Position numbers and translations under genes: made by a program. From contig CM000152.2 in NCBI GenBank assembly GCA_000004695.1, forward strand, positions 4,224,001-4,288,000: a stretch of DNA of 64,000 nucleotides, read 5' to 3'. How positions within the stretch are numbered: the first letter of the stretch is position 1; the number at the start of each line of letters is the position of its first letter. Under the pieces are notes generated by a model that worked only from the letters and a program-made list of their open reading frames with translations, did not search any database and was not told the DNA's origin. Of the stretch, positions 16,494 through 46,636 are shown piece by piece. This stretch comes from Dictyostelium discoideum (taxonomy: Eukaryota).

Positions 16494-16787
16494 TAATAAA
16501 AAAATAAAAAATTTATAATTTTATAAAAAACTACCTATTCGTGGTATATATATATATAACAAATATACTTGTATGTGGTATATTTGAATCATTTAAAGTT
16601 TTTTTTCAATTGGTCAAAAATTAGTTAAACTAATTTAATTATCCATTTTAATTAAAAGGTGGGATCAAGCTCTTTAGTATTTTCTTGGTTTCTACACCAT
16701 AACAATAAAATTTGTTAGAATTTTTTAAATCACCAAAAAAAATTTATCAACTTATTCGGGCAATTACCACAAAATCTCACCAACAAA

Positions 16788-16858
16788 GCGTATGTGGTCT
16801 AGTGGTATGATAGCTGCCTTCCAAGCAGTTGAACCGGGTTCGATTCCCGGCATACGCA
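16788..16858 (+). tRNA. tRNA-Gly (anticodon UCC)
   Basis: 71-nt cloverleaf. Acceptor GCGTATG/CATACGC, T-arm CCGGGTTCGATTCCCGG, anticodon loop CTTCCAA. An A-box-like TGGTCTAGTGG and a B-box GGTTCGATTCC are present. Confidence 0.9.
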
Positions 16859-16907
16859 AATATTTTACAAAAATCAACATTTCCCGAACTTCAGGAATAG
16901 AACATAA

Positions 16908-16916
16908 GTTCGACTC
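16908..16916 (+). promoter_or_regulatory. Downstream ex-B box-like motif (GTTCGACTC) ~50 bp 3' of tRNA-Gly
   Basis: Dictyostelium tRNA genes commonly carry an extra B-box copy downstream. The motif is conserved at the second tRNA-Gly locus (23100-23108, minus strand). Confidence 0.45.
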
Positions 16917-16959
16917 TTGGGGAATTTCATTATAACTAGGTTCATTTGTGCTTTTTATA

Positions 16960-17982
16960 TGTTCAGTTAAAATTTTAATAAAAGTCTTTAACTACATCTG
17001 AACGAGATATCATCTGAAAGATTGAAATTGTGATTTAAATCTATTCGTAGTTTTTTAAAAGGAGAGGTGGAAAGTAGAGACAGATAAAATAATAATAAAA
17101 ATTCATTCATTTTCTTAAACATAAAATATATCATATTAATTTTATTATTTTATTATTTATCAAGGATTTTACCAATCTCTATCGAGTATGGATTTAAGTT
17201 TGTTTAGTTTGGAAGATGTTGAAAATTAGTATTCAAATTGGGCTAACAGTGCTCTTTGTAGTTGCTAGGGTTAAAGAATTATCCTCAAAGGAATGCAATT
17301 TTTCTCTTAGATTGGTTTATTGGCTGCACACACATCGTTAATATACTCACAATCCCAATAACTCCACAATCCTACAAAGACAAAACCCCTATATACATGA
17401 TCCAGCCGATTTACCATTATATACTCCGGCCCCCAAAACAACCTATAACCGATTACTAATCCTAAATTTACTGGTTATACTTTCATAAATCTATTCAAAA
17501 ACATTCTCAAAATGTAGTAAAACTCATTTCATTCTAGATGCCTACCTATTAACCAACATGACCAACTTTGCCATCTCTACAATGAAGACATGCCCGATCT
17601 ATCTGGTCCCCTCTTCTTAGAGTGACACACGAATATTACAATTCATAAACTTTAAGGAGATTAAAACAGTAATCATTGATCTCACAGACTCATTATTTAT
17701 ACCTTGTATTATAATTATTATGAAACAACCACCTAAAACCATCACAAAAGATAAATTGAAATCAGATTTCATTGTCCATACCCAACCCTTCTATTAAATA
17801 GTGCAAACTACACTAGAATATAAAATAAAAAAATTGAAATTTTCTCTTTCAAAAGATCCAAGTAATTTTAGATATTTTTACCTAAAAAAAAAGATCAAGA
17901 AAATGTCATACCATCTTCAATAACCTATTTAATGATTTAATCAAAAAACAATATTAAAACTGGTAAGAATTGAGTTAATAGT

Positions 17983-18016
<34 letters not shown>

Positions 18017-18045
18017 TTGGTAAAAAAAAAAAAAAAAAAAAAAAA
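16960..18045 (+). mobile_element. 5'-truncated non-LTR retroelement fragment (TRE3-like, tRNA-downstream class) ending in (AAT)n/poly(A)
   Basis: Complex, relatively GC-rich non-coding sequence starting ~100 bp downstream of tRNA-Gly, ending in poly(A) at ~18020-18045. The 17760-17900 segment is homologous to 42940-43060, downstream of tRNA-Lys(CUU). Confidence 0.4.
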
Positions 18046-18187
18046 GTAGTTTAATATTGGTAAAAATGAATAACCAAATGACAATAATAAAGTTACCAAA
18101 TGGTTTTTTTTTTTTTTTTTTTATTTATTTTAGATTTAAAACAAAGGAAAAAAAAAAAAATAATAAAAATAGAAACAAGAATTCTTT

Positions 18188-18220
<33 letters not shown>

Positions 18221-18260
18221 TTAATTTTGGGAAAAAAAAAAATAAAAATAAATCTATGAT

Positions 18261-19201
18261 TTAAATTTCATTATCATAATCATTTTCATCATAATAATCG
18301 TCATCGATTTCATATTCATCATGATCATATTCATCACCGCTTTTTGATTTTCTATTACTTCTATTGAAACCATGATAATCATCGAAATCGTCATAACCTT
18401 CATCATCATCTTCGCTTGATGGATATTCCCTATACCAATTTTCTGAATCTACACTAAAGTCATCTGATAAACCACCATCTAAAATGTCATAAAAATCATC
18501 TTCAGGTGGCAAGGTTACAGTTTCAATTAAATCTGAATGCTCTTCATTTAATCTTAACAATTGTGATTGTTGATCAATTGATGGATTAAAATAATAATAA
18601 TCATAAACATATTTGGTTTCCATTGGTTTACTACTACTATCGTTAGGACCACCCAAATGTTCGTCCAATAATGTTCTATAATTTGAAATTAATTCCTCCT
18701 CTTCCTTTGATAGTGTTGAACCTAATAAATTATTTGGATCCAATATAGTTCTTTCCAATTCAATAACATCATGATCTTGAAATAATTTTCTTTCTTCTTT
18801 ACTAAATAAATTTCTATTTGTATTAATTTGTTTATATCTTGATTCTTTTCTTTTTTTCTATTTAAATAAAATTAAATAAAAAATTAATAAAAAAAAAAAA
18901 AAAAAAAAAAAAAGTATGTTGAATAATAATAAAAATCAAAAAAAAAATACAAACAATTGCTTTTTCTCTTTTGGATTCTAATTGTTTTGGTGAAGATATA
19001 ACACCTTTTTGATTAAACTCTTCAATTCTTTGTTGAAGTTTAGTTAATAATACATTAGTGCCATTTGATGGTACATCGAGTGTTGTAATCAATGTAAATA
19101 ATTTTCTATCCTTTTCTGGTAAATTTGATTTGTTTGGTGTTGTTATTTTATCATTATTATTACTATTATCATTATTATTATTGTTGTTGTTGTTGTTATT
19201 C

Positions 19202-19251
<50 letters not shown>

Positions 19252-19538
19252 ATTGTTATTTTCTTTTGAAGTTTCTATATCATTTGGTAATTTATGATTA
19301 TCATTATCATCATCATTATTTTGAATTCCAAAATCTTTAAATGAATCTAAAAATGCTTTTTTTCTTGGTCTTTCAATAAATATTGATGGTAGTGCATCAT
19401 CATCTATCTTTCTTTTAATCTTTAAAATTACTGGTTTATTTGCTTTATTTATATTTTGTTGTTGTTGCTGTTGTTGAAGTTGTTGTATTTCTTTTTGAAT
19501 TTTTTGTTGTCTTTCTTCATCTTCTTTATCTTTACGAC

Positions 19539-19599
<61 letters not shown>

Positions 19600-19821
19600 G
19601 TTACCATTTATATTATCATTATCATTTCTTGAAGAAATTTCAAATTTTGTTGGATTTAAAACCATTTCTGTTAATAAATCATTATTAATATTATTCTTTG
19701 TTCTTTGTTTTGGTATATTTGGTGTAAATATCTTTTTAGCCGACGATGACTTTTTTTGAGGTGTTATTATTTGATTATCATTTTCTTGTTTATTATTTGC
19801 ATTTATTGTTGAAGATTTCAT
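18261..19821 (-). CDS. N-rich nuclear-like protein with a very acidic D/E/Y-rich C-terminus; exons 19821-18955 and 18857-18261
   Basis: The downstream ORF has no in-frame ATG (the tool start is TTG). Joining via donor GTTTGT at 18954 and acceptor tttaaatag at 18858 (97-nt T-rich intron) is phase 0 and yields ...ESKREKAI|KKRKESRYKQ...ELERTILDPNN.... Confidence 0.55.
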
Positions 19822-20318
19822 AATATAATTTTAATTATTTATTTATTTGAATTTTTATTTACACGTTCGTATGTTCAACAAAATGAAAATAAAAATTAAA
19901 AAATTAAAAAAAAAAATAAAAATAAAAATAAAAATAAAAATAAAAAAATAAAAAAAAAAATTAAAAATTAAAAAAATAAAAAAAAAAATTAATTAAAAAA
20001 TAAAAAAAATTAGATCTATTGTTGTTGTTATTATTATTATAATTAAAATTTCTCAAACGAAGAAAAAAATTAAAAAAAAAAAAAAGACGAGAGGGAGGGA
20101 TATTTAATATAAAAATTAATTAAAAAAAAAATATGAAAAAAAAGAAAAATATAAAAAAAAAATAAAAAAAAAAGTTTTTTTGTTTTAATTTTTTATTTTT
20201 TTATTTTTTTTTTATATCGCACATATAAATATAAAATATAAATTTGTTTATTTCTTCTTCTATTCACTATTTAAAAATAAAAAATAATAATAATAAAAAA
20301 AAAAAAAAAAAAAAGGAA

Positions 20319-20703
20319 ATGGATGACAGTAGTGTATTATTATTAGATGAGGAGTTAAAAAAGATAAATGAAAAGTTTCAAGCAGGTGAAATGAAAGCGT
20401 TTGGTTTAAATCAACAAAAGATTTTAAAAGATTTTCAAGAAATTAGAAAACAACAAGCTCAATTATCGATGAAACAAGTATCAATTGGTTCAGAAAGAAT
20501 AAAAGTACATGATATTGAAAATATTGGTAAAGAAGATGCTGATACTAATATTTATGATTCAATCAAAGAAAAAGAAGAAGATTTAACAAAATTAACTCAA
20601 ACTTTAAATTCAATTTGTAAAAATATGTATGTTATTAATAATATATCATTTTGTTGTTGTTTTTGTTGATGCATTTATTTTATTTTATTTATTTAATAAC
20701 TAA

Positions 20704-20738
<35 letters not shown>

Positions 20739-20805
20739 AAGTGAAATAACAAACCAATTAGCAAGCCAAAGTGGAAATAAAAATAAAAATCATAATAATA
20801 TTTAA
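20319..20805 (+). CDS. Small coiled-coil protein (~135 aa), hypothetical; exons 20319-20626 and 20742-20805
   Basis: ATG at 20319 (MDDSSVLLLDEELKK...). Donor GTATGT at 20627, acceptor aaaaag at 20741, ending ...NHNNI. Without splicing the ORF ends in an odd ...CCCFC tail. Confidence 0.4.
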
Positions 20806-21221
20806 ATTTGGTAGAAAAAAAAAAAAATAGTTTACAGAAAACAAGGTTTAATAAGAAAAAAAATTAATCTCAAGGATTCAAGAAATATTTTTTTTTGGTC
20901 GCAGTTATAACGATTCTTTTTTTTTTTTAGCGCCTCAAAAAAAAAGATTGCCCCAAAGTTCTAAGAAAAAAAAAAATTATTCAAAATAAAATATTATTTT
21001 TTTTTTTCAATTTTTTTTTTTTTTTTTTTGATTTGGCTGTCATTTTTTTTATAAATAAAATTGGTTTCCTTTTTTTCTTTTACTTTTGTCAATACAATTA
21101 TTATTCTAAACAAATTTTTATATATCTTTTGAAAAAAAAAAAAAATAAAAAAAAGAAAAGAAAAAAAAGAAAAATAAAAAAAAGAAAAAAAAAAACATTT
21201 TTTACATATATATATTTAAAA

Positions 21222-22856
21222 ATGGCTACAGATTATTCAAATATGTCATATTCTCAACTTCAAGGTTTAGCAAAGTCAAATGGTATAAAAGCAAATGGTA
21301 AAAAAGATGAACTCATTGAAAGATTAGAGAAATATGATTCAGAAAGTAAAACAACAACAACTACTACCACCACCACCACTACAAGTTCAACAACATCAAA
21401 GAGAAAGAAAAGAGATGAATCAGAGCCAGAAGAAGATAGTGAAGATGAAGAGATTGAAAAGCCAGTAGCACCAGTTAAAAGAGCACCATCCAAGAAATCA
21501 GCAGCAATTAATAATAAAAAGCGTAGAGCTGAAGAAGAAGAAGAAAAAGAAGAAGAAGGAGAAGAAAAAGAAGATGATGATAATGATGATCATATTATTT
21601 TACCACAAGCCACAGTCACTACTACTACTACAAGTTCAACATCAAATGGAGCACAAATTAAAAAAGTTGGACCATTTGATAAATGTGAAGATGATATTGG
21701 TAAATGGATTAGAGATGAATCTGTTTCTTATTACCTTGGCGAAGTTTTATCAAGATCAAAGATTGCATCATTTGATATGGATAGTACAATGATTAAGAAT
21801 AAATCTGGTAAAGTTCATGCAATAAATAAGGACGATTGGTTATGGTGGGATGAATGTGTTCCAAAGAATCTTAAACAACTTTACAATGATGGTTATCAAG
21901 TTGTTATCTTTACAAATCAAGGTGGTATTGGTCATGGCTCTAAATTTTGTAGAACAAAATTCAATGATATCACAAAGAAGATTGAAATCCTCGAGAAAGA
22001 ATTAGGTTTCCCATTGATTGCATTCATTGCTTGTGCCGATGATGCCAATAGAAAACCAAATAGAAAGATGTGGGACATGATGTACGAGTGTACCGATGGC
22101 AAAGTTGTAATCAACGAAAGTGAATCATTCTATTGTGGTGATGCTGCAGGTCGTCCAGATGGTTGGAAAGCTGGTGTTAAAAAAGATTTCAGTAATAGTG
22201 ATTTAGGTTTCGCCATGACAGTTGGTATTCGTTTTGAAACTCCTGAAACTCATTTCCTTGGTGAAAGTCATTTTGTTTTAGCAGGTGGTGATGATATTGT
22301 CAACTCATTAATTCCAAGTGCTCCAACAAGTGGTAAAAGTTTTGAAAGCGATTCAATCGTCACAAAAGATTTTGAAATGGTTATTTCCGTTGGTTATCCA
22401 GCCGCTGGTAAATCAACTTTTGCTAGAAAATATTTTGGTCCAGCTGGTTATGCAATCATTAATCAAGACACTTTGAAAGATAAAGCCCAATGTTTAAAAG
22501 CTGCCAACGCTGCCCTCGCTCAAGGTAAATCTGTTATCATTGATAATACGAATCCCACTAAAGATGTTCGTGCTGAATACCTTGCTTTAGCTAAAAAATA
22601 CAATGCCAAAGCTCGTTGTTTAAACTTTACAACCTCATTCGATTTAGCTATGCATCTCAACTATTACCGTGAAAGAAAAGATGGTGTCAAACATATCCCA
22701 AGTATAGGTTACTTTACATTTAGAAAGAAATATCAAGAACCAAATACAAGTGAAGGTTTTGTTTCTGTTCATCAAATTAATTTTATACTTGACTTAGATG
22801 ATAAAAATAAATCAATGTACTTTATTCCAAATCCAAAAGCTAAAGCTAAAAAATAA
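21222..22856 (+). CDS. Bifunctional polynucleotide 3'-phosphatase / 5'-kinase (PNKP) with an N-terminal SAP motif
   Basis: HAD phosphatase motif FDMDSTMI with downstream GDAAGRPDG. Kinase P-loop VISVGYPAAGKSTFARKY. N-terminal YSQLQGLAKSNGIKANGKKDELIERLEKY matches the SAP consensus. The ORF-track start at 21033 is AT-rich UTR read-through; the true ATG is 21222. Confidence 0.9.
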   Translation: MATDYSNMSYSQLQGLAKSNGIKANGKKDELIERLEKYDSESKTTTTTTTTTTTSSTTSKRKKRDESEPEEDSEDEEIEKPVAPVKRAPSKKSAAINNKKRRAEEEEEKEEEGEEKEDDDNDDHIILPQATVTTTTTSSTSNGAQIKKVGPFDKCEDDIGKWIRDESVSYYLGEVLSRSKIASFDMDSTMIKNKSGKVHAINKDDWLWWDECVPKNLKQLYNDGYQVVIFTNQGGIGHGSKFCRTKFNDITKKIEILEKELGFPLIAFIACADDANRKPNRKMWDMMYECTDGKVVINESESFYCGDAAGRPDGWKAGVKKDFSNSDLGFAMTVGIRFETPETHFLGESHFVLAGGDDIVNSLIPSAPTSGKSFESDSIVTKDFEMVISVGYPAAGKSTFARKYFGPAGYAIINQDTLKDKAQCLKAANAALAQGKSVIIDNTNPTKDVRAEYLALAKKYNAKARCLNFTTSFDLAMHLNYYRERKDGVKHIPSIGYFTFRKKYQEPNTSEGFVSVHQINFILDLDDKNKSMYFIPNPKAKAKK

Positions 22857-23069
22857 AATAAAATAAAATAAAATAATAAAAAAAAAATTTGTAATTTAGA
22901 ATTCAATTTTCCTTTAAATTTGTTTTAATCATAATTAATTTTAAAATATAGTGCAGTAATTGTTATAATTTTTTTTTTTTTAAAAAATCAAATAATAAGA
23001 TTGTAATTGATTAGATGAATTGGTAAAAGGAGATAAGATTAGAAAGCACTGATTCTAGAACACAGTACT

Positions 23070-23330
23070 TTGCAAGTTATATTTATGTTAACTGGACAAG
23101 AGTCGAACTTATGTTCTTTTTCCGGAAGTTCCGAGAATATTGGTTTGTAGAAAAATATATGCGTATGCCGGGAATCGAACCCGGTTCAACTGCTTGGAAG
23201 GCAGCTATCATACCACTAGACCACATACGCTATGTTGATGAGATTTTGGGGTAAATGCCCGAATAAGTTTTAAAAAAATTATTGATGATTTTGATTGATT
23301 AAATTTTTTTTGGTGATGTAGAAAAATTTT
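23070..23330. repeat. Inverted duplicate of the tRNA-Gly locus unit (tRNA plus ~100 bp upstream and ~60 bp downstream flank), partner at ~16690-16950
   Basis: The upstream flank atcaccaaaaaaaattta...cttattcgggca.ttacc.caaaatctca.caaca and the downstream cggaacttc.ggaa.agaacataagttcgactctt are conserved in both copies in opposite orientation. Confidence 0.75.
23160..23230 (-). tRNA. tRNA-Gly (anticodon UCC), identical to the copy at 16788-16858
   Basis: The reverse complement of 23160-23230 equals the 71-nt tRNA-Gly sequence exactly. A T-run follows on the minus strand. Confidence 0.9.
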
Positions 23331-42052: not shown

Positions 42053-42690
42053 ATCTAGATATTTATAAATTTATTATTATTTAGTTTATTATGTTTGATA
42101 TTGTATTATTATTTTATTTATTATCTAATTTAATTTTAGTTTTTTAAAATCTTTATATTTTTTTTTTTCACTTTTTTATTTTATTTTTATTTTGTAAATG
42201 AACTCAATGAATTTTTTAATTTAATTATAAAAAAAATTATTTGAAAAAAAAAAAAAAAATAAAAAAAAAAAAAAAAAATTGTTTTTTTTTTTTTTCAAAC
42301 AAAATATGCATTATTTTTATTTTTTTTATTTTTTTTTTTTTATTTATTTTCTTTTATTTTATTTTTATATTTCCTTTTTTTTTTACCAAAATAAGAATGA
42401 TAAATGTTTTTTTATTAAACCAATTTAAATTGGCATTTTTTTATTTTAAATGAACAATCTCCATTACAAAAAATAAAATAAATTATCAAAAAAATAATTA
42501 ACCTTCAGTATTCGTCCATCGGTTAAGTTTTATCAATTTTGTCTTATTTATAAAAAATAGAGTTTTTTTTGAATTGGGTACCGAATGGATGAGATCTTAG
42601 GTCACACAGATTTAACCAAACTTTCCTACCCTTGCTTTAAATTATAAAAAATAATTTTAATGTAATATTAAATTTGAAAATATCAAAAAT

Positions 42691-42763
42691 GCCCGGCTAG
42701 CTCAGTCGGTAGAGCGCCAGACTCTTAATCTGGTGGTCGGGGGTTCGAGCCCCCCGTTGGGCG
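42691..42763 (+). tRNA. tRNA-Lys (anticodon CUU)
   Basis: 73-nt cloverleaf with anticodon loop CTCTTAA and T-arm GGGGGTTCGAGCCCCCC, followed by a T-run. Confidence 0.9.
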
Positions 42764-42766
42764 AAT

Positions 42767-42773
42767 TTTTTTC
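42767..42773 (+). terminator. Pol III oligo(T) terminator after tRNA-Lys(CUU)
   Basis: ttttttt immediately 3' of the tRNA. Confidence 0.5.
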
Positions 42774-42839
42774 CAATACAACCACTTGTACGAAGTTCGT
42801 ATTTTTGAATGGTATATTAATATGAAAAAAAAAAAAAAA

Positions 42840-43195
42840 ACAATAACAAAATACGTAATTAGAAATCTAAATTAATATTTTTTATTAATAAAGATTTAAA
42901 ATAATTAATTGTATAGTGATGAACCTTCTAAAAATGAAAAGATTTCATATTCCACTCTACCTAATAAATGTTACAAACTAGAATATAAAAAATTAATTAA
43001 CTCTTTCAAAAGATCCCAGCAATTTTAAAGACCTAAACGATTTCTTTAAACATTATATTTAACTTCACTATATTTAAAATTCTGAATTTTGATAATTAAA
43101 TAAAAGGAATACCTACTTGACATTTTATAACTTGTGATGTTTGTGAATTAATAATTAGGTTTATAATCGACTATACATTGATATCAAAGATGCAT
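42840..43195 (+). mobile_element. Retroelement fragment homologous to the tRNA-Gly-downstream element (TRE3-like)
   Basis: aaactagaatataaaa...ctctttcaaaagatcccagcaattttaaagacc matches 17795-17870, beginning ~80-150 bp downstream of tRNA-Lys(CUU). Confidence 0.4.
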
Positions 43196-43211
43196 AATTA
43201 GACTACAATAA

Positions 43212-44050
43212 TATTCATAAAAAATGGTATTTTTTTTTTTTTATATAATCAACAATCTGACGTTTATTTGTTTGAATTTTTGGTGTTTTTGTTGTATCTC
43301 TTTTTGCCAACGAGGTGGATTTGTGGGGTTTATGGGAATTCCAAGTAGATTTAAGCTTTTCTCCAAAATCATGATCGATTTTAACTTCGTTGGTTTTGAT
43401 GGAACTTAGTTATCTCTCTTTTCTCTTTCTTCTTCTTGTATTTTGTAAGAAATACCACGTACTGGATAATTAGCAATACGTCTCATTAAATGGGTACAGA
43501 AACCTTAAATCTTGTTTCTGTACCCATACCTCTAGAGGTTTTGATAAAGAATAATCTTTTATTATTTGGTTTTTAATATTTTTAATTTGTATGATGTATT
43601 TGATTCTGTTACAAATTGGGAGGATGTCTTTTGATGATGCTAATTTAAGAATTATATCATAGTCTAATGTTGTGGCTTGGGTTTTAGTAGAGTTGATTTC
43701 AAATCCATATACATACTTGGTGAAATATCATTGCTATTAAGTTTTTATAGGAGAAATGTCTTGAGAGGTCATAATCTATGGCCTTGTAGCACCATATGAA
43801 GTGTGGTTTATGAAATCTTATATGAATGTAGTCCATGTTGATTTCGTAGTCTTTCTTCATATAAGGATTATTGGTGTGATTTTGTTTTATTGTTTATAAT
43901 CATTCATTCGTGTAACCAGTTAGATTTCCCGCCTGTTGATTTGAAGATGAATCTCGTTAGTTTGGTAGTGTTAATATATGAATATAAATAGCTCAAAATT
44001 TCTGTATCCCAAACTCTGCCTAACCAATTAAAGTATAAATAACCATATCT
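43212..44050 (-). mobile_element. Non-coding, degenerate retroelement-like sequence on the minus strand with a poly(A) tail (T15 on the plus strand at 43211-43225), downstream of tRNA-Lys(UUU)
   Basis: Complex, non-AT-rich sequence with no long ORF. A hairpin ggtacagaaacaagatttaaggtttctgtaccc is present. Confidence 0.3.
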
Positions 44051-44061
44051 GGAATTGAACC
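44051..44061 (-). promoter_or_regulatory. ex-B box (GGTTCAATTCC on the minus strand) ~32 bp downstream of tRNA-Lys(UUU)
   Basis: Matches the B-box consensus GGTTCGANTCC. Part of the flank duplicated at 46276-46314; an orphan copy lies at 45613-45623. Confidence 0.5.
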
Positions 44062-44092
44062 TGTGATCTATCTTATACTAAATCTAAAATTT

Positions 44093-44165
44093 CGCCCAAA
44101 GGGGGGCTCGAACCCCCGACCACAAGGTTAAAAGCCTTGCGCTCTACCGACTGAGCTATCTGGGC
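44093..44165 (-). tRNA. tRNA-Lys (anticodon UUU)
   Basis: The reverse complement gives gcccagatagctcagtcggtagagcgcaaggcttttaaccttgtggtcgggggttcgagcccccctttgggcg, with anticodon loop CTTTTAA. Confidence 0.9.
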
Positions 44166-44212
44166 ATTTTTGGAAATTTCGAAATTAAAAACAACTACAG
44201 AACGATTTTTTA

Positions 44213-45062
44213 AGCCTGGAAGTTGTTGCACCACCCAAGAGAGCGAATAACTCTCAAACTAAACCAAGTCAAACCCAAATACGAAAACAAACAAAAATTA
44301 AAAGTAATCTATAGAAACATGATGGATATCAAATACAAGGGATGGAACAAACACCAGCCAACAACAGGTCAAAAACTGATTCAAAAGAACATTAATCACC
44401 CAATTCTACCATTTAGAGAAGCCAGATCAATCACAACTATCAAAGGAAGAGACTTAGCGTGGAGATATCTACTCAAGGCACTTCCAAAACACCATGGGGA
44501 GAATTGTCACTCATGTAAAGAAGAAGAGTCGTCTATGCACATCTTCTTCGAATGCAAATCAATAAAACAGAATATCGACTCAATCTATCAAAAGGTCTGT
44601 AAAGACTCCAACAACACTTACCACGGTCCATGGAGCGAAAAAGTTCTCGGAAAACTACTCACACCATTCTCATCAAATCTGATAGGAGCCATTATGGAAT
44701 CGATATGGTACAGAAGAAATCAAATAAAATTCAACGATAACACTACAATAATAACAGAGAACCAAATAATTCATAAAATCAAAAAAGCGAGAGATGCCGA
44801 ATGGGATAGAACAAGAAAGATAGTAGAAAAGCAACTACGTCAAGAACTAAGATGCACTGATAACCGAGAGTCAATCAATCGGACCGCATCAATAAAAAGA
44901 AGACTCGAAAAATTCAGCCACAACTGGAACTCGAAACTCATGACCATAAACATCCCGGAACACTTCATACCATACTGCTCATATAACACCAACTCATAAA
45001 AAAAAAAAAAAAAAAAATTATAACAATAATAATAATAATAATAATATAATAATAATAATAAT

Positions 45063-45093
<31 letters not shown>

Positions 45094-45106
45094 TAAGAAT
45101 AACAAG

Positions 45107-45164
<58 letters not shown>

Positions 45165-45170
45165 AAACTC
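44213..45170 (+). mobile_element. 5'-truncated tRNA-upstream non-LTR retrotransposon fragment (TRE5-like): ORF2 C-terminal tail (intact 258-aa ORF 44223-44999 with a CCHC-type zinc finger) plus an A-rich/(AAT)n 3' tract
   Basis: Begins ~50-58 bp upstream of the tRNA-Lys(UUU) 5' end, the classic TRE5 position. Contains HGENCHSCKEEESSMHIFFECKS. Followed by A16, (AAT)n and an A45 tract at 45000-45160. Confidence 0.5.
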
Positions 45171-45227
45171 TCCTAGAACACACTCAAATTGAGTGATGTT
45201 ATTACGATTTTTTTTAACCATCTCTTT

Positions 45228-45440
45228 TAGAGGCCCTGTAAAAATATTACAAATAAAATGAGATCTAGCATCTCAAGGAGATGCAACTAATAATTGTCTG
45301 ATTAAAAAAATAAAAAAACTAGATTGTTAACACTTACTTTATGAGGCCTAGTAAACTACAAATAAAATGGGACCTAGAATCTACAGGAGAGGCAACTAAA
45401 CATTTCACTATCCAATACAAAAAAGGTCGATTTTTAATTT
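45228..45440 (+). repeat. Two tandem ~105-bp repeats (gaggccctgtaaaaatattacaaataaaatgagatctagcatctcaaggagatgcaactaa / gaggcctagtaaactacaaataaaatgggacctagaatctacaggagaggcaactaa)
   Basis: Direct repeat immediately 3' of the A-rich tract, possibly a retroelement 3' (C-module-like) region. Confidence 0.5.
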
Positions 45441-45599
45441 GAATAATAAAATTTCATATTTGAAATGAAAGCGATAGTTGTTTCATTACAGTCACACTAG
45501 AAACAACTTCAATTAATTATTGGAATATAATTGTGTAAATATTTTATGTAAAAATTGATGTTTATGAAATGTTGGATTTAACTTATGTTTAGTTAATGA

Positions 45600-46314
45600 T
45601 TTAATAAGTTAGGAGTTGAACCTGTGATCTATCTTATTTTTTTTTTGATATAAATAAACTATTGTAGTATACAATTAGTATGTTATTTTTATTTATTTAT
45701 TTTAGGTTTTTTAGTTTTTGTGAATTTAAAATAGTATGTTATTTTAGATTAGGTAATTAATAATTAATTGGTGGTGTAATTGTTGGAATTGGTTCATTAG
45801 TGTTTATGCTCCATTCTTTTTTAAATTTTTTGATGGTTTCGGACCATTGGGTTTCTTTTTGAGTTTTTGTGAGGTTGTTTTTAATTGAGTATTGGTTAAA
45901 GTTCTTGAATATTCCAATCTTATTAGCTTGTGCCATTTTGATTTTAATATATCATAATCTAGTGTTGTGTTGTTTATTTGGTTGTTCTAATTATCAATTG
46001 ATTGAGTTATATTGATGTCAAATAATGATTTGCATAACCATATCCATATTTGGTGAATAACTAATGAGATTATGTTCCAATATGCATGTGTTCTGACTAG
46101 ATCAAGATTTGTGTTTATATAATTCCAGTTGAACCTGTATTTTTTATATTGTGCGTTTTCTGCAAAATGAAAATTAATATTGATAGTTGGATCTGGTTTA
46201 AATGCTTTGTTGTTTGTTTGTGGTTTATAGATGAGTGTGTATAATTTTGTTGTTTGGTTTTTTGTTAGTGACCAGTTTTTGATAGTGATCTATCTTATAC
46301 TAAATTTAAAATTT
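45600..46314 (-). mobile_element. Degenerate retroelement-like sequence plus a duplicated tRNA-Lys(UUU) 3' flank; includes an orphan ex-B-box copy (45613-45623) not attached to a tRNA
   Basis: gttgaacctgtgatctatcttat at 45613 and gtgatctatcttatactaaatttaaaatttcgccc at 46280 copy the flank at 44057-44095. No ORF longer than 60 aa. Confidence 0.3.
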
Positions 46315-46387
46315 CGCCCAAAGGGGGGCTCGAACCCCCGACCACAAGGTTAAAAGCCTTGCGCTCTACCGACTGAGCTATCTGGGC
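46315..46387 (-). tRNA. tRNA-Lys (anticodon UUU), second identical copy
   Basis: Identical 73-nt sequence to 44093-44165. Confidence 0.9.
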
Positions 46388-46636
46388 ATATTTGAAAATT
46401 TTAATTTTTTTACAAAATCACATTGATTTTTAATGACAATCGAAAATTTAAAATTTTAAATAAAAATAAAACAAAAGCAATAGAAATCTTTTTTTTTTTA
46501 AAAACAATTCTATCAAGATTTGAATTGAAATTGATTGAGGTATTAACTTCATTCTAAACCTAAAAAAAAAACTTTTTTTTAAATTTTTTTTTTTTTTTAT
46601 TTTTCTATTTTTTTTTAGAAAACACATCGCACCACC

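Follow-up and report, generated by a model that had tools for sequence, protein, structure and literature searches.

An old convergent pair of tRNA-Gly(UCC) genes brackets a 6.3-kb gene block that is inverted in AX4-type Dictyostelium discoideum

Two tRNA-Gly(UCC) genes face each other across a block of three protein-coding genes in a 64,000-nt stretch of Dictyostelium discoideum DNA (contig CM000152.2; hereafter, the window), and this pair and the block it brackets are the subject of the present report. The window is AT-rich dictyostelid DNA of the D. discoideum AX4 type: the PNKP protein encoded in the block is identical to AX4 XP_640898.1 / Q54U78, and a chromosome-level AX4-like assembly (GCA_054883475.1, here L001) is collinear with the window over 21.6 kb at 99.77% identity. 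ARAGORN and Rfam agree on five tRNA genes in the 64 kb, two for Gly(UCC) and three for Lys (Table 1). The glycine genes lie 6301 nt apart and are convergent, with their 5' flanks pointing outward and their 3' flanks, each with an external B box (ex-B), pointing into the block. Between them are a gene of 487 amino acids (aa) that matches no Pfam family, a small coiled-coil gene of the CCDC28 family, and the PNKP gene, the same N-rich, coiled-coil, and PNKP genes that a first-pass annotation of the window had placed between the pair.

That annotation also described the tRNA genes as identical and oppositely oriented, within conserved units of about 260 bp. Identity and orientation are borne out by the ARAGORN and Rfam calls, with a match at 71 of 71 nt, and the two genes share the traits of the same-anticodon tRNA gene pair class (same anticodon, 100% identity, a few kilobases apart). 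When the units are aligned, similarity extends beyond the tRNA: gapped blastn joins -61..+132 of one copy to -61..+134 of the other at 87.7% identity over 195 nt (E 2e-66), and a 173-nt core is 90.75% identical. Upstream flanks of 300 nt gave a local alignment score of 77 versus 30.5 +/- 4.7 for shuffled sequence (z about 10), downstream flanks scored 65 versus 31 +/- 5 (z about 7), and glycine flanks compared with those of the three tRNA-Lys genes showed no similarity (z, -0.7 to 2.1). The annotated extent needs trimming. Some 60 bp of downstream conservation had been proposed and 61 to 63 nt were measured, ending right after GTTCGACTCTTG; the 100 bp proposed upstream was an overstatement, as homology there is contiguous for 38 nt, reaches 61 nt with gaps in blastn, and covers about 80 versus 113 nt when a 28-nt indel is allowed. 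The unit is about 195 nt long rather than 260 bp. Across the 64 kb, the upstream motif singled out in the annotation has two matches against an expectation of zero.

Each unit has the appearance of a complete RNA polymerase III (Pol III) gene. The internal A and B boxes both match the definitions given for D. discoideum (A box TRRYNNARYNG, B box GTTCRANNC; PMC5391098), and within 10 nt 3' of each tRNA is a run of four or five T residues that, from general knowledge of Pol III, is likely the terminator. Just four matches to the sequence GTTCGANTC are present in the window, namely the two internal B boxes and two downstream copies. At the latter sites, a few tens of nucleotides past the tRNA in both units, GTTCGACTC fits the published external B box, GTTCRAnYC, an element that 66% of D. 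discoideum tRNA genes carry at a downstream distance of about 41 bp (PMC3159450). The downstream element earlier called ex-B-like can therefore be equated with this known one, except that here it stands 50 nt from the tRNA 3' end instead of about 41 bp.

Table 1. Features of the tRNA-Gly(UCC) pair, the bracketed block, and the remaining tRNA genes (window coordinates unless another locus is named)
Feature	Coordinates	Strand	Basis and remarks
Left (F-side) unit	16727-16919	+	tRNA-Gly(UCC) with homologous 5' and 3' flanks; 5' flank outward to FYVE-like gene
Left 38-nt upstream block ACTTATTCGGGCAATTACCACAAAATCTCACCAACAAA	16750-16787	+	Holds cross-species motif AAAATCTCA(C/T)C at about -18 to -7
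Left tRNA-Gly(UCC), 71 nt	16788-16858	+	ARAGORN; Rfam RF00005, 68 bits
A box TGGTCTAGTGG	16795-16805	+	Motif scan; tRNA positions 8-18
B box GTTCGATTC	16838-16846	+	B-box scan
T4 run, likely Pol III terminator	16863-16866	+	Read from sequence; 5-8 nt past tRNA 3' end
Left CCGAACTTC motif	16884-16896
Left ex-B GTTCGACTC	16908-16916	+	Motif scan; 50 nt 3' of tRNA end
Block inverted in AX4 lineage relative to sister taxa	16920-23096		tblastx, gene order, breakpoint mapping
FNIP-repeat gene 3'-end remnant	17897-17964	+	blastn to L003 6883-6962, 73.8% over 80 nt, E 5e-9; tblastn E 0.015-0.22
487-aa gene	18261-19821	-	N-rich N-terminal exon and acidic C-terminal exon; open reading frames, gene call in L001
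CCDC28-family small coiled-coil gene, 123 aa, one intron	20319-20806	+	PF13270, E 3e-18; gene call in L001
PNKP gene, 544 aa, SAP + PNK3P + AAA_33	21222-22856	+	Pfam; identity to XP_640898.1
Right (C-side) unit	23097-23291	-	Gapped blastn; 5' flank outward to ComC-family gene
Right ex-B GTTCGACTC	23100-23108	-	Motif scan; 50 nt 3' of tRNA end
Right CCGAACTTC motif	23122-23135		Extends to near-palindrome CGGAACTTCCGGAA
Right tRNA-Gly(UCC), 71 nt	23160-23230	-	ARAGORN, Rfam; 71/71 nt same as left copy
Right 38-nt upstream block	23231-23268	-	4 differences from left block
tRNA-Lys(CUU)	42690-42764		ARAGORN, Rfam
tRNA-Lys(UUU)	44092-44166	-	ARAGORN, Rfam
tRNA-Lys(UUU)	46314-46388	-	ARAGORN, Rfam
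F-side tRNA-Gly copies with A5G, D. citrinum	L003 12612-12682; L009 13394-13464
F-side tRNA-Gly copy with A5G, D. firmibasis	L005 12697-12767

Orthologous loci were fetched from other genomes by way of PNKP homologs and their cluster members, and the comparison covers nine related assemblies, most of them taken from PMC12745789. Besides L001, these are two further D. discoideum isolates (L002 and L007), a cryptic lineage designated 'D. cf. discoideum' (L008), two D. citrinum strains (L003 and L009), D. dimigraforme (L004), D. firmibasis (L005), and D. purpureum (L006). The same study places the divergence of AX4 and D. firmibasis at 50 to 100 million years and describes cryptic species within the discoideum clade (PMC12745789). 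Throughout, the tRNA copy toward the FYVE-like gene is called F-side and the copy toward the ComC-family gene C-side.

With PNKP set to the same orientation in all genomes, two arrangements were found. AX4, L001, L002, and L007 have Nudix(-), TBCC-like(+), and FYVE-like(+) on one side, the 487-aa gene(-), CCDC28(+), and PNKP(+) in the block, and ComC(+) on the other side. The cryptic lineage, both D. citrinum strains, D. dimigraforme, and D. firmibasis have ComC(-) first, then a block that closes with the 487-aa-like gene(-), CCDC28(+), and PNKP(+), and then FYVE-like(-), TBCC-like(-), and Nudix(+). In tblastx searches against L003, L004, and L005, window positions 18.26-22.83 kb map in plus orientation, and 6.5-16.5 kb and 23.9-27.9 kb map in minus orientation with their sides swapped. 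Orientation in L008 and L009 was taken from the order of called genes and, for L008, additionally from direct comparison of the breakpoints. Past ComC, the D. citrinum contig continues through CBM49 and a cAMP-receptor-like gene on to COQ2 in the same order as AX4; the outer genes are collinear, and the difference between these species is confined to the block that the tRNA genes bracket. A neighbor-joining (NJ) tree of PNKP DNA has the topology ((((AX4,(L002,L007)),L008),(Dcit,Dcit)),Ddim),Dfir, where Dcit, Ddim, and Dfir are D. citrinum, D. dimigraforme, and D. firmibasis, so that a single inversion on the branch to AX4, L002, and L007 suffices. The earlier suggestion that the pair forms a substrate for inversion of the intervening genes is thereby upheld, since the block is flipped in the AX4 lineage relative to every one of these five genomes.

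Because assemblers can be confused by inverted repeats, one might suspect that the difference in orientation was created during assembly. The repeats are only about 200 nt long, far below the length of long reads; each orientation is present in several independent assemblies, four of the AX4 type (the window, L001, L002, and L007) and five others (L008, L003, L009, L004, and L005); their distribution tracks the phylogeny; and structural validation of the new assemblies was reported by their authors (PMC12745789). An artefact of assembly is scarcely credible in the face of these observations.

The breakpoints lie within the tRNA units themselves. Compared with the cryptic lineage, the closest unflipped genome, the left AX4 copy matches the FYVE-side copy in its far-upstream sequence and the ComC-side copy in its far-downstream sequence. 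The right AX4 copy has the reciprocal makeup, matching the ComC-side copy far upstream and the FYVE-side copy far downstream (at the PNKP 3' end, 96%). For each tRNA the switch in orthology falls between -38 and about +133 to +154, inside the repeat unit, and both AX4 units are intact, with nothing lost, gained, or filled in at the junctions. Inverted repeats at both ends of the segment, opposite orientation of the segment in related genomes, collinear outer flanks, and breakpoints inside the repeats are all found together here, and intact junctions inside the units are what an exchange between inverted repeats by homologous recombination should leave.

Breakage at two tRNA genes could in principle produce a similar flip with no role for homology, if double-strand breaks, such as those from collisions between replication forks and Pol III, were rejoined end to end. 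In yeast, an association of tRNA genes with both evolutionary breakpoints and replication fork pausing (PMC2817429) lends the idea some plausibility. At this locus, however, both junctions fall in units that are already homologous in the unflipped cryptic lineage (271 nt at 83.8%), the tRNA genes and their flanks came through without the loss, duplication, or filler that joining of broken ends could leave, and the concerted evolution described below provides independent evidence that the two copies recombine. We regard end joining as improbable.

Evidence for such recombination comes from the flanks, which resemble each other within a genome more than they resemble their counterparts in other genomes. 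Over the 45 nt upstream of the tRNA, a stretch whose orthology is unaffected by the inversion, the two copies in the cryptic lineage are 91% identical to each other, and each is only 67 to 71% identical to its AX4 ortholog; the two AX4 copies are 84% identical. In an NJ tree of the upstream 60 nt, bootstrap support for grouping by genome is 100% for the paralogs of the cryptic lineage and 81% for those of AX4, and the closely related L002 and L007 group by ortholog. The length over which the two copies are homologous varies from genome to genome: 96 nt (L003) and 125 nt (L009) in D. citrinum, 146 nt in D. firmibasis, 166 nt in L002, 195 nt in AX4, 268 nt in L007, and the 271 nt already noted in the cryptic lineage. 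The tRNA itself carries a similar record. Both D. citrinum strains and D. firmibasis have an F-side copy with A5G, which places a G-U pair in the acceptor stem; the D. firmibasis copy has three more substitutions (T19C, G26A, and T43A), and all copies in the discoideum clade are identical to the ComC-side sequence. That the discoideum clade lacks A5G is consistent with the F copy having been converted by the C copy. Taken as a whole, these results show that the copies evolve in concert through gene conversion, and that this has happened repeatedly, in separate lineages.

The principal competing account of the similar flanks is functional. In the first-pass annotation, the conserved upstream block was proposed as a shared Pol III control element, and one can imagine that an upstream TFIIIB or start-site element and a TFIIIC-binding ex-B are held alike by purifying selection, with the inversion incidental. 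Several short elements speak for this view. A AAAWNTCTCATC-like motif at about -18 to -5 is present in all 14 copies from four species, even though the surrounding intergenic DNA cannot be aligned; CCGAACTTC, about 25 to 38 nt downstream, is retained in every copy from the discoideum and citrinum clades and is absent from D. firmibasis; and AX4, L002, L007, and D. firmibasis all have the ex-B, a documented element (PMC3159450). The larger pattern does not follow. Outside the AAAWNTCTCATC-like motif, identity of the 38-nt block with its counterparts in D. citrinum and D. firmibasis is 35 to 53%, which is chance level; the ex-B is degenerate in the cryptic lineage and absent from both D. citrinum strains, and is therefore no absolute requirement here; homologous tracts range from 96 to 271 nt between genomes, as expected for conversion; and purifying selection does not predict lineage-specific variants common to paralogs or clustering by genome. 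Paralog clustering and these shared variants mean that gene conversion explains the upstream block better than a Pol III element does, and the proposal of a conserved 38-nt control element finds no support in the form given. Selection on the flanks as the general explanation is a serious contender that we nevertheless judge unlikely. What survives of it is narrower: the roughly 12-nt AAAWNTCTCATC-like motif could be functional, CCGAACTTC and the ex-B may be as well, and Pol III and TFIIIC would be their putative users. Neither the window nor the loci fetched from other genomes contained an additional tRNA-Gly(UCC) copy, and searches of metagenome contigs (with the 71-nt gene and a 47-nt core) and of genome contigs returned no match.

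A pair of identical genes might also simply be young. Same-anticodon tRNA gene pairs and triplets are a recognized peculiarity of D. discoideum (the genome paper, as cited in PMC8163159), and in AX4 the two tRNAs are identical with flanks that are 88% identical, as a recent local duplication without any conversion would leave them. A convergent tRNA-Gly(UCC) pair stands at the block borders in L001, L002, L007, L008, L003, L009, and L005, however, so that the same two intergenic positions are occupied in D. citrinum and in D. firmibasis, the latter separated from AX4 by the 50 to 100 million years cited above. The pair is therefore old rather than recently duplicated. In addition, the F-side A5G shared by D. 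citrinum and D. firmibasis means that the copies were already distinct in their common ancestor. Young age is thus a very improbable reason for the identity of the two genes. Such same-anticodon pairs were reportedly ascribed to recent duplications when the D. discoideum genome was first described.

We propose, as very probably correct, a history in which an old convergent pair, gene conversion, and one crossover on the AX4 branch account for the locus. The tRNA-Gly(UCC) pair would be older than the divergence of D. discoideum from D. firmibasis, and it brackets the same block in those lineages. Its two copies would interact by intrachromosomal homologous recombination, with non-crossover events that repeatedly homogenized the tRNA and 100 to 270 nt of flank; repeated conversion of this kind would explain tRNAs that are 100% identical and flanks that are 84 to 91% identical in AX4 and its relatives. 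A single crossover within the homogenized unit would then have inverted the 6.3-kb block with the 487-aa gene, CCDC28, and PNKP in the ancestor of AX4/AX2 and the two other isolates, after the cryptic 'cf. discoideum' lineage had branched off. With both exchange points in intergenic tRNA units, all genes were left intact.

Several observations weigh against this history or limit its precision. Recombination is read from its products rather than from any event observed, and breakpoints were mapped directly against the cryptic lineage only, where concerted evolution has erased the diagnostic sites, so the crossover can be placed only to within about 170 to 195 nt. The direction of the change comes from parsimony and a single-gene NJ tree, and inverted repeats can flip repeatedly, which allows for more than one event. 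The first-pass annotation had pointed to strain assemblies as a place to look for inversion polymorphism. The opposite orientation did turn up, in related lineages; among the four AX4-type assemblies (the window, L001, L002, and L007) no polymorphism in orientation was seen, and the inversion looks like a fixed difference rather than an active switch. D. dimigraforme has the ancestral orientation yet carries no tRNA-Gly at either border, and blastn-short found no tRNA remnants there; the pair can thus be dispensed with and has undergone losses. In D. purpureum, a 407-aa gene, CCDC28, and PNKP retain their internal order and orientation (L006 3029-7254), so that the trio is a syntenic unit of greater age than can be demonstrated for the tRNA pair. 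The neighbors in D. purpureum are wholly different (Exo_endo_phos, ependymin-like, Tdp1, and PRMT genes) and its 17-kb locus contains no tRNA gene, so that the age of the pair extends demonstrably only to the D. firmibasis split, and D. purpureum, considered as an outgroup for polarity, proved uninformative.

The D. dimigraforme borders (about L004 3338-4280 and 11626-12469) do hold B-box-like motifs oriented as expected for ex-B; the ComC-side border has GGTTCGAATCTTGG, and the FYVE-side border has GCGTTCGAATCTTT in reverse complement. They may be 'solo ex-B' remnants that outlasted the loss of the tRNA genes.

The closest precedent for the rearrangement is in Saccharomyces, where 20 inversions were found and all were flanked by tRNA genes (Kellis 2003, as cited in PMC2817429). 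The yeast sensu stricto cases resemble the D. discoideum block in that a small segment is flipped between close species, tRNA genes stand at both ends, the outer order is unchanged, and the flip probably came about by ectopic homologous recombination of the repeats. The present case differs in being amoebozoan, in having tRNA genes of the same isoacceptor that are 100% identical, in the 100 to 200 nt of homologous flank that evolve in concert, in the lack of any Ty- or long-terminal-repeat-type element at the AX4 junctions, and in the occupation of the same sites by the pair since before the D. firmibasis split. Among the same-anticodon pairs for which D. discoideum is known, two identical tRNA genes 6.3 kb apart are unexceptional; this pair stands out because it is old, holds the same position in several species, is linked to a particular rearrangement, and is apparently kept identical by selection and conversion instead of recent duplication.

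Inverted repeats that evolve in concert through gene conversion, and that now and then invert the DNA between them, are a familiar outcome of non-allelic homologous recombination. The tRNA-Gly locus follows that pattern, with paralogs closer within a genome than orthologs are between genomes and with a spacer that flips. It departs from the classical cases in scale, as the repeats are about 0.2 kb rather than kilobases long, and in having as their core a Pol III gene that is under purifying selection of its own. The inversion is well supported but mechanistically ordinary, combining things of known kinds: tRNA pairs, ex-B, and tRNA-flanked inversions. Our literature search found no report of this inversion or of inversions mediated by tRNA pairs in Dictyostelium, and the study that supplied most of the comparison genomes treats only large-scale synteny (PMC12745789).

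Gene content next to these tRNA genes has changed as well. An FNIP-repeat gene is intact at the ComC-side border of the block in D. citrinum (641 aa, L003 5076-7001; FNIP Pfam match, E 3e-132) and in D. dimigraforme (597 aa, L004 4280-6169), and it is lost in the discoideum clade. AX4 retains a remnant of its 3' end (Table 1) in the orientation that the inversion model predicts. As the spacer of the cryptic lineage is collinear with AX4 16.9-18.3 kb, the loss preceded the inversion. We also considered 16.9-18.25 kb of the window as a possible gene, and found no convincing open reading frame (ORF) in six frames, only the FNIP remnant; this interval is 74 to 79% conserved with L002, including 17.1-17.9 kb at 74% without an ORF, and is read as decayed or non-coding DNA.

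Retroelements have settled beside the orthologous tRNA-Gly genes in other species. In D. firmibasis, a full-length non-long-terminal-repeat retrotransposon (L005 1202-6120), with a 413-aa ORF1 and a 1225-aa ORF2 containing RVT_1, lies about 350 nt downstream of the ComC-side gene. A 5'-truncated relative occupies L009 12103-13334 in D. citrinum, about 60 nt downstream of the FYVE-side gene. TRE3-like retroelements target tRNA genes, and this TRE3-like placement suggests that the orthologous tRNA-Gly genes are active Pol III targets.

Elsewhere in the window, the three tRNA-Lys genes form a second variable cluster, which we compared between window 42690-46388, L010 13051-17174, and L011 13708-16621. 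The two tRNA-Lys(UUU) genes are identical, 2.1 kb apart, and have 29 nt of 3' flank in common. In the syntenic region of D. citrinum, two Lys(UUU) genes in inverted orientation enclose a 221-aa gene and one for a short-chain dehydrogenase, neither of which is present in this part of AX4, and the first tRNA past the Alba-like gene is Lys(CUU) in AX4 and Lys(UUU) in D. citrinum and D. firmibasis. These differences indicate that tRNA identity and local gene content turn over there too. A 258-aa ORF at 44223-45180, which has a Cys/His motif weakly similar to the C terminus of the D. firmibasis ORF2 (E 0.06), starts about 48 to 57 nt upstream of the tRNA-Lys(UUU) at 44092-44166 and is followed by an A-rich tail. 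It is probably a 5'-truncated TRE5-type element at the typical distance, which would account for the GC-rich, A-skewed kilobase at 44-45 kb.

A more general idea goes beyond this one locus. Inverted same-anticodon pairs might be general recombination hinges of dictyostelid genomes, maintained by selection and conversion over tens of millions of years, that repeatedly flip or remodel the few genes they bracket and are a main source of micro-inversions and local gene turnover in a gene-dense genome. Variation in the Lys cluster is compatible with that view and is no test of it, and we consider so broad a role possible but doubtful. In a bolder version, a convergent pair with ex-B boxes, as putative TFIIIC-binding sites, would form chromatin boundaries and make the bracketed genes one unit that can be flipped harmlessly. 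We looked for a link to the restriction of chromatin looping by convergent gene pairs (PMC11754127) and set it aside, as that paper makes no mention of tRNA genes and the connection is speculation only.

For the discoideum clade, the locus provides a fixed 6.3-kb inversion that separates AX4-type D. discoideum from its cryptic sister lineage and from D. citrinum, and with both exchange points within a 0.2-kb tRNA repeat it is a dated and mechanistically readable rearrangement. The orientation of the block offers a simple structural marker for the clade that can be tested by polymerase chain reaction. Candidate functional elements in the flanks are narrowed to the roughly 12-nt upstream motif, CCGAACTTC, and the ex-B. 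At least one of the 'paired' tRNA gene sets of D. discoideum is ancient and appears to be held identical by gene conversion, which raises the question of whether tRNA pairs shape the micro-synteny of social amoebae as tRNA genes do in yeasts.

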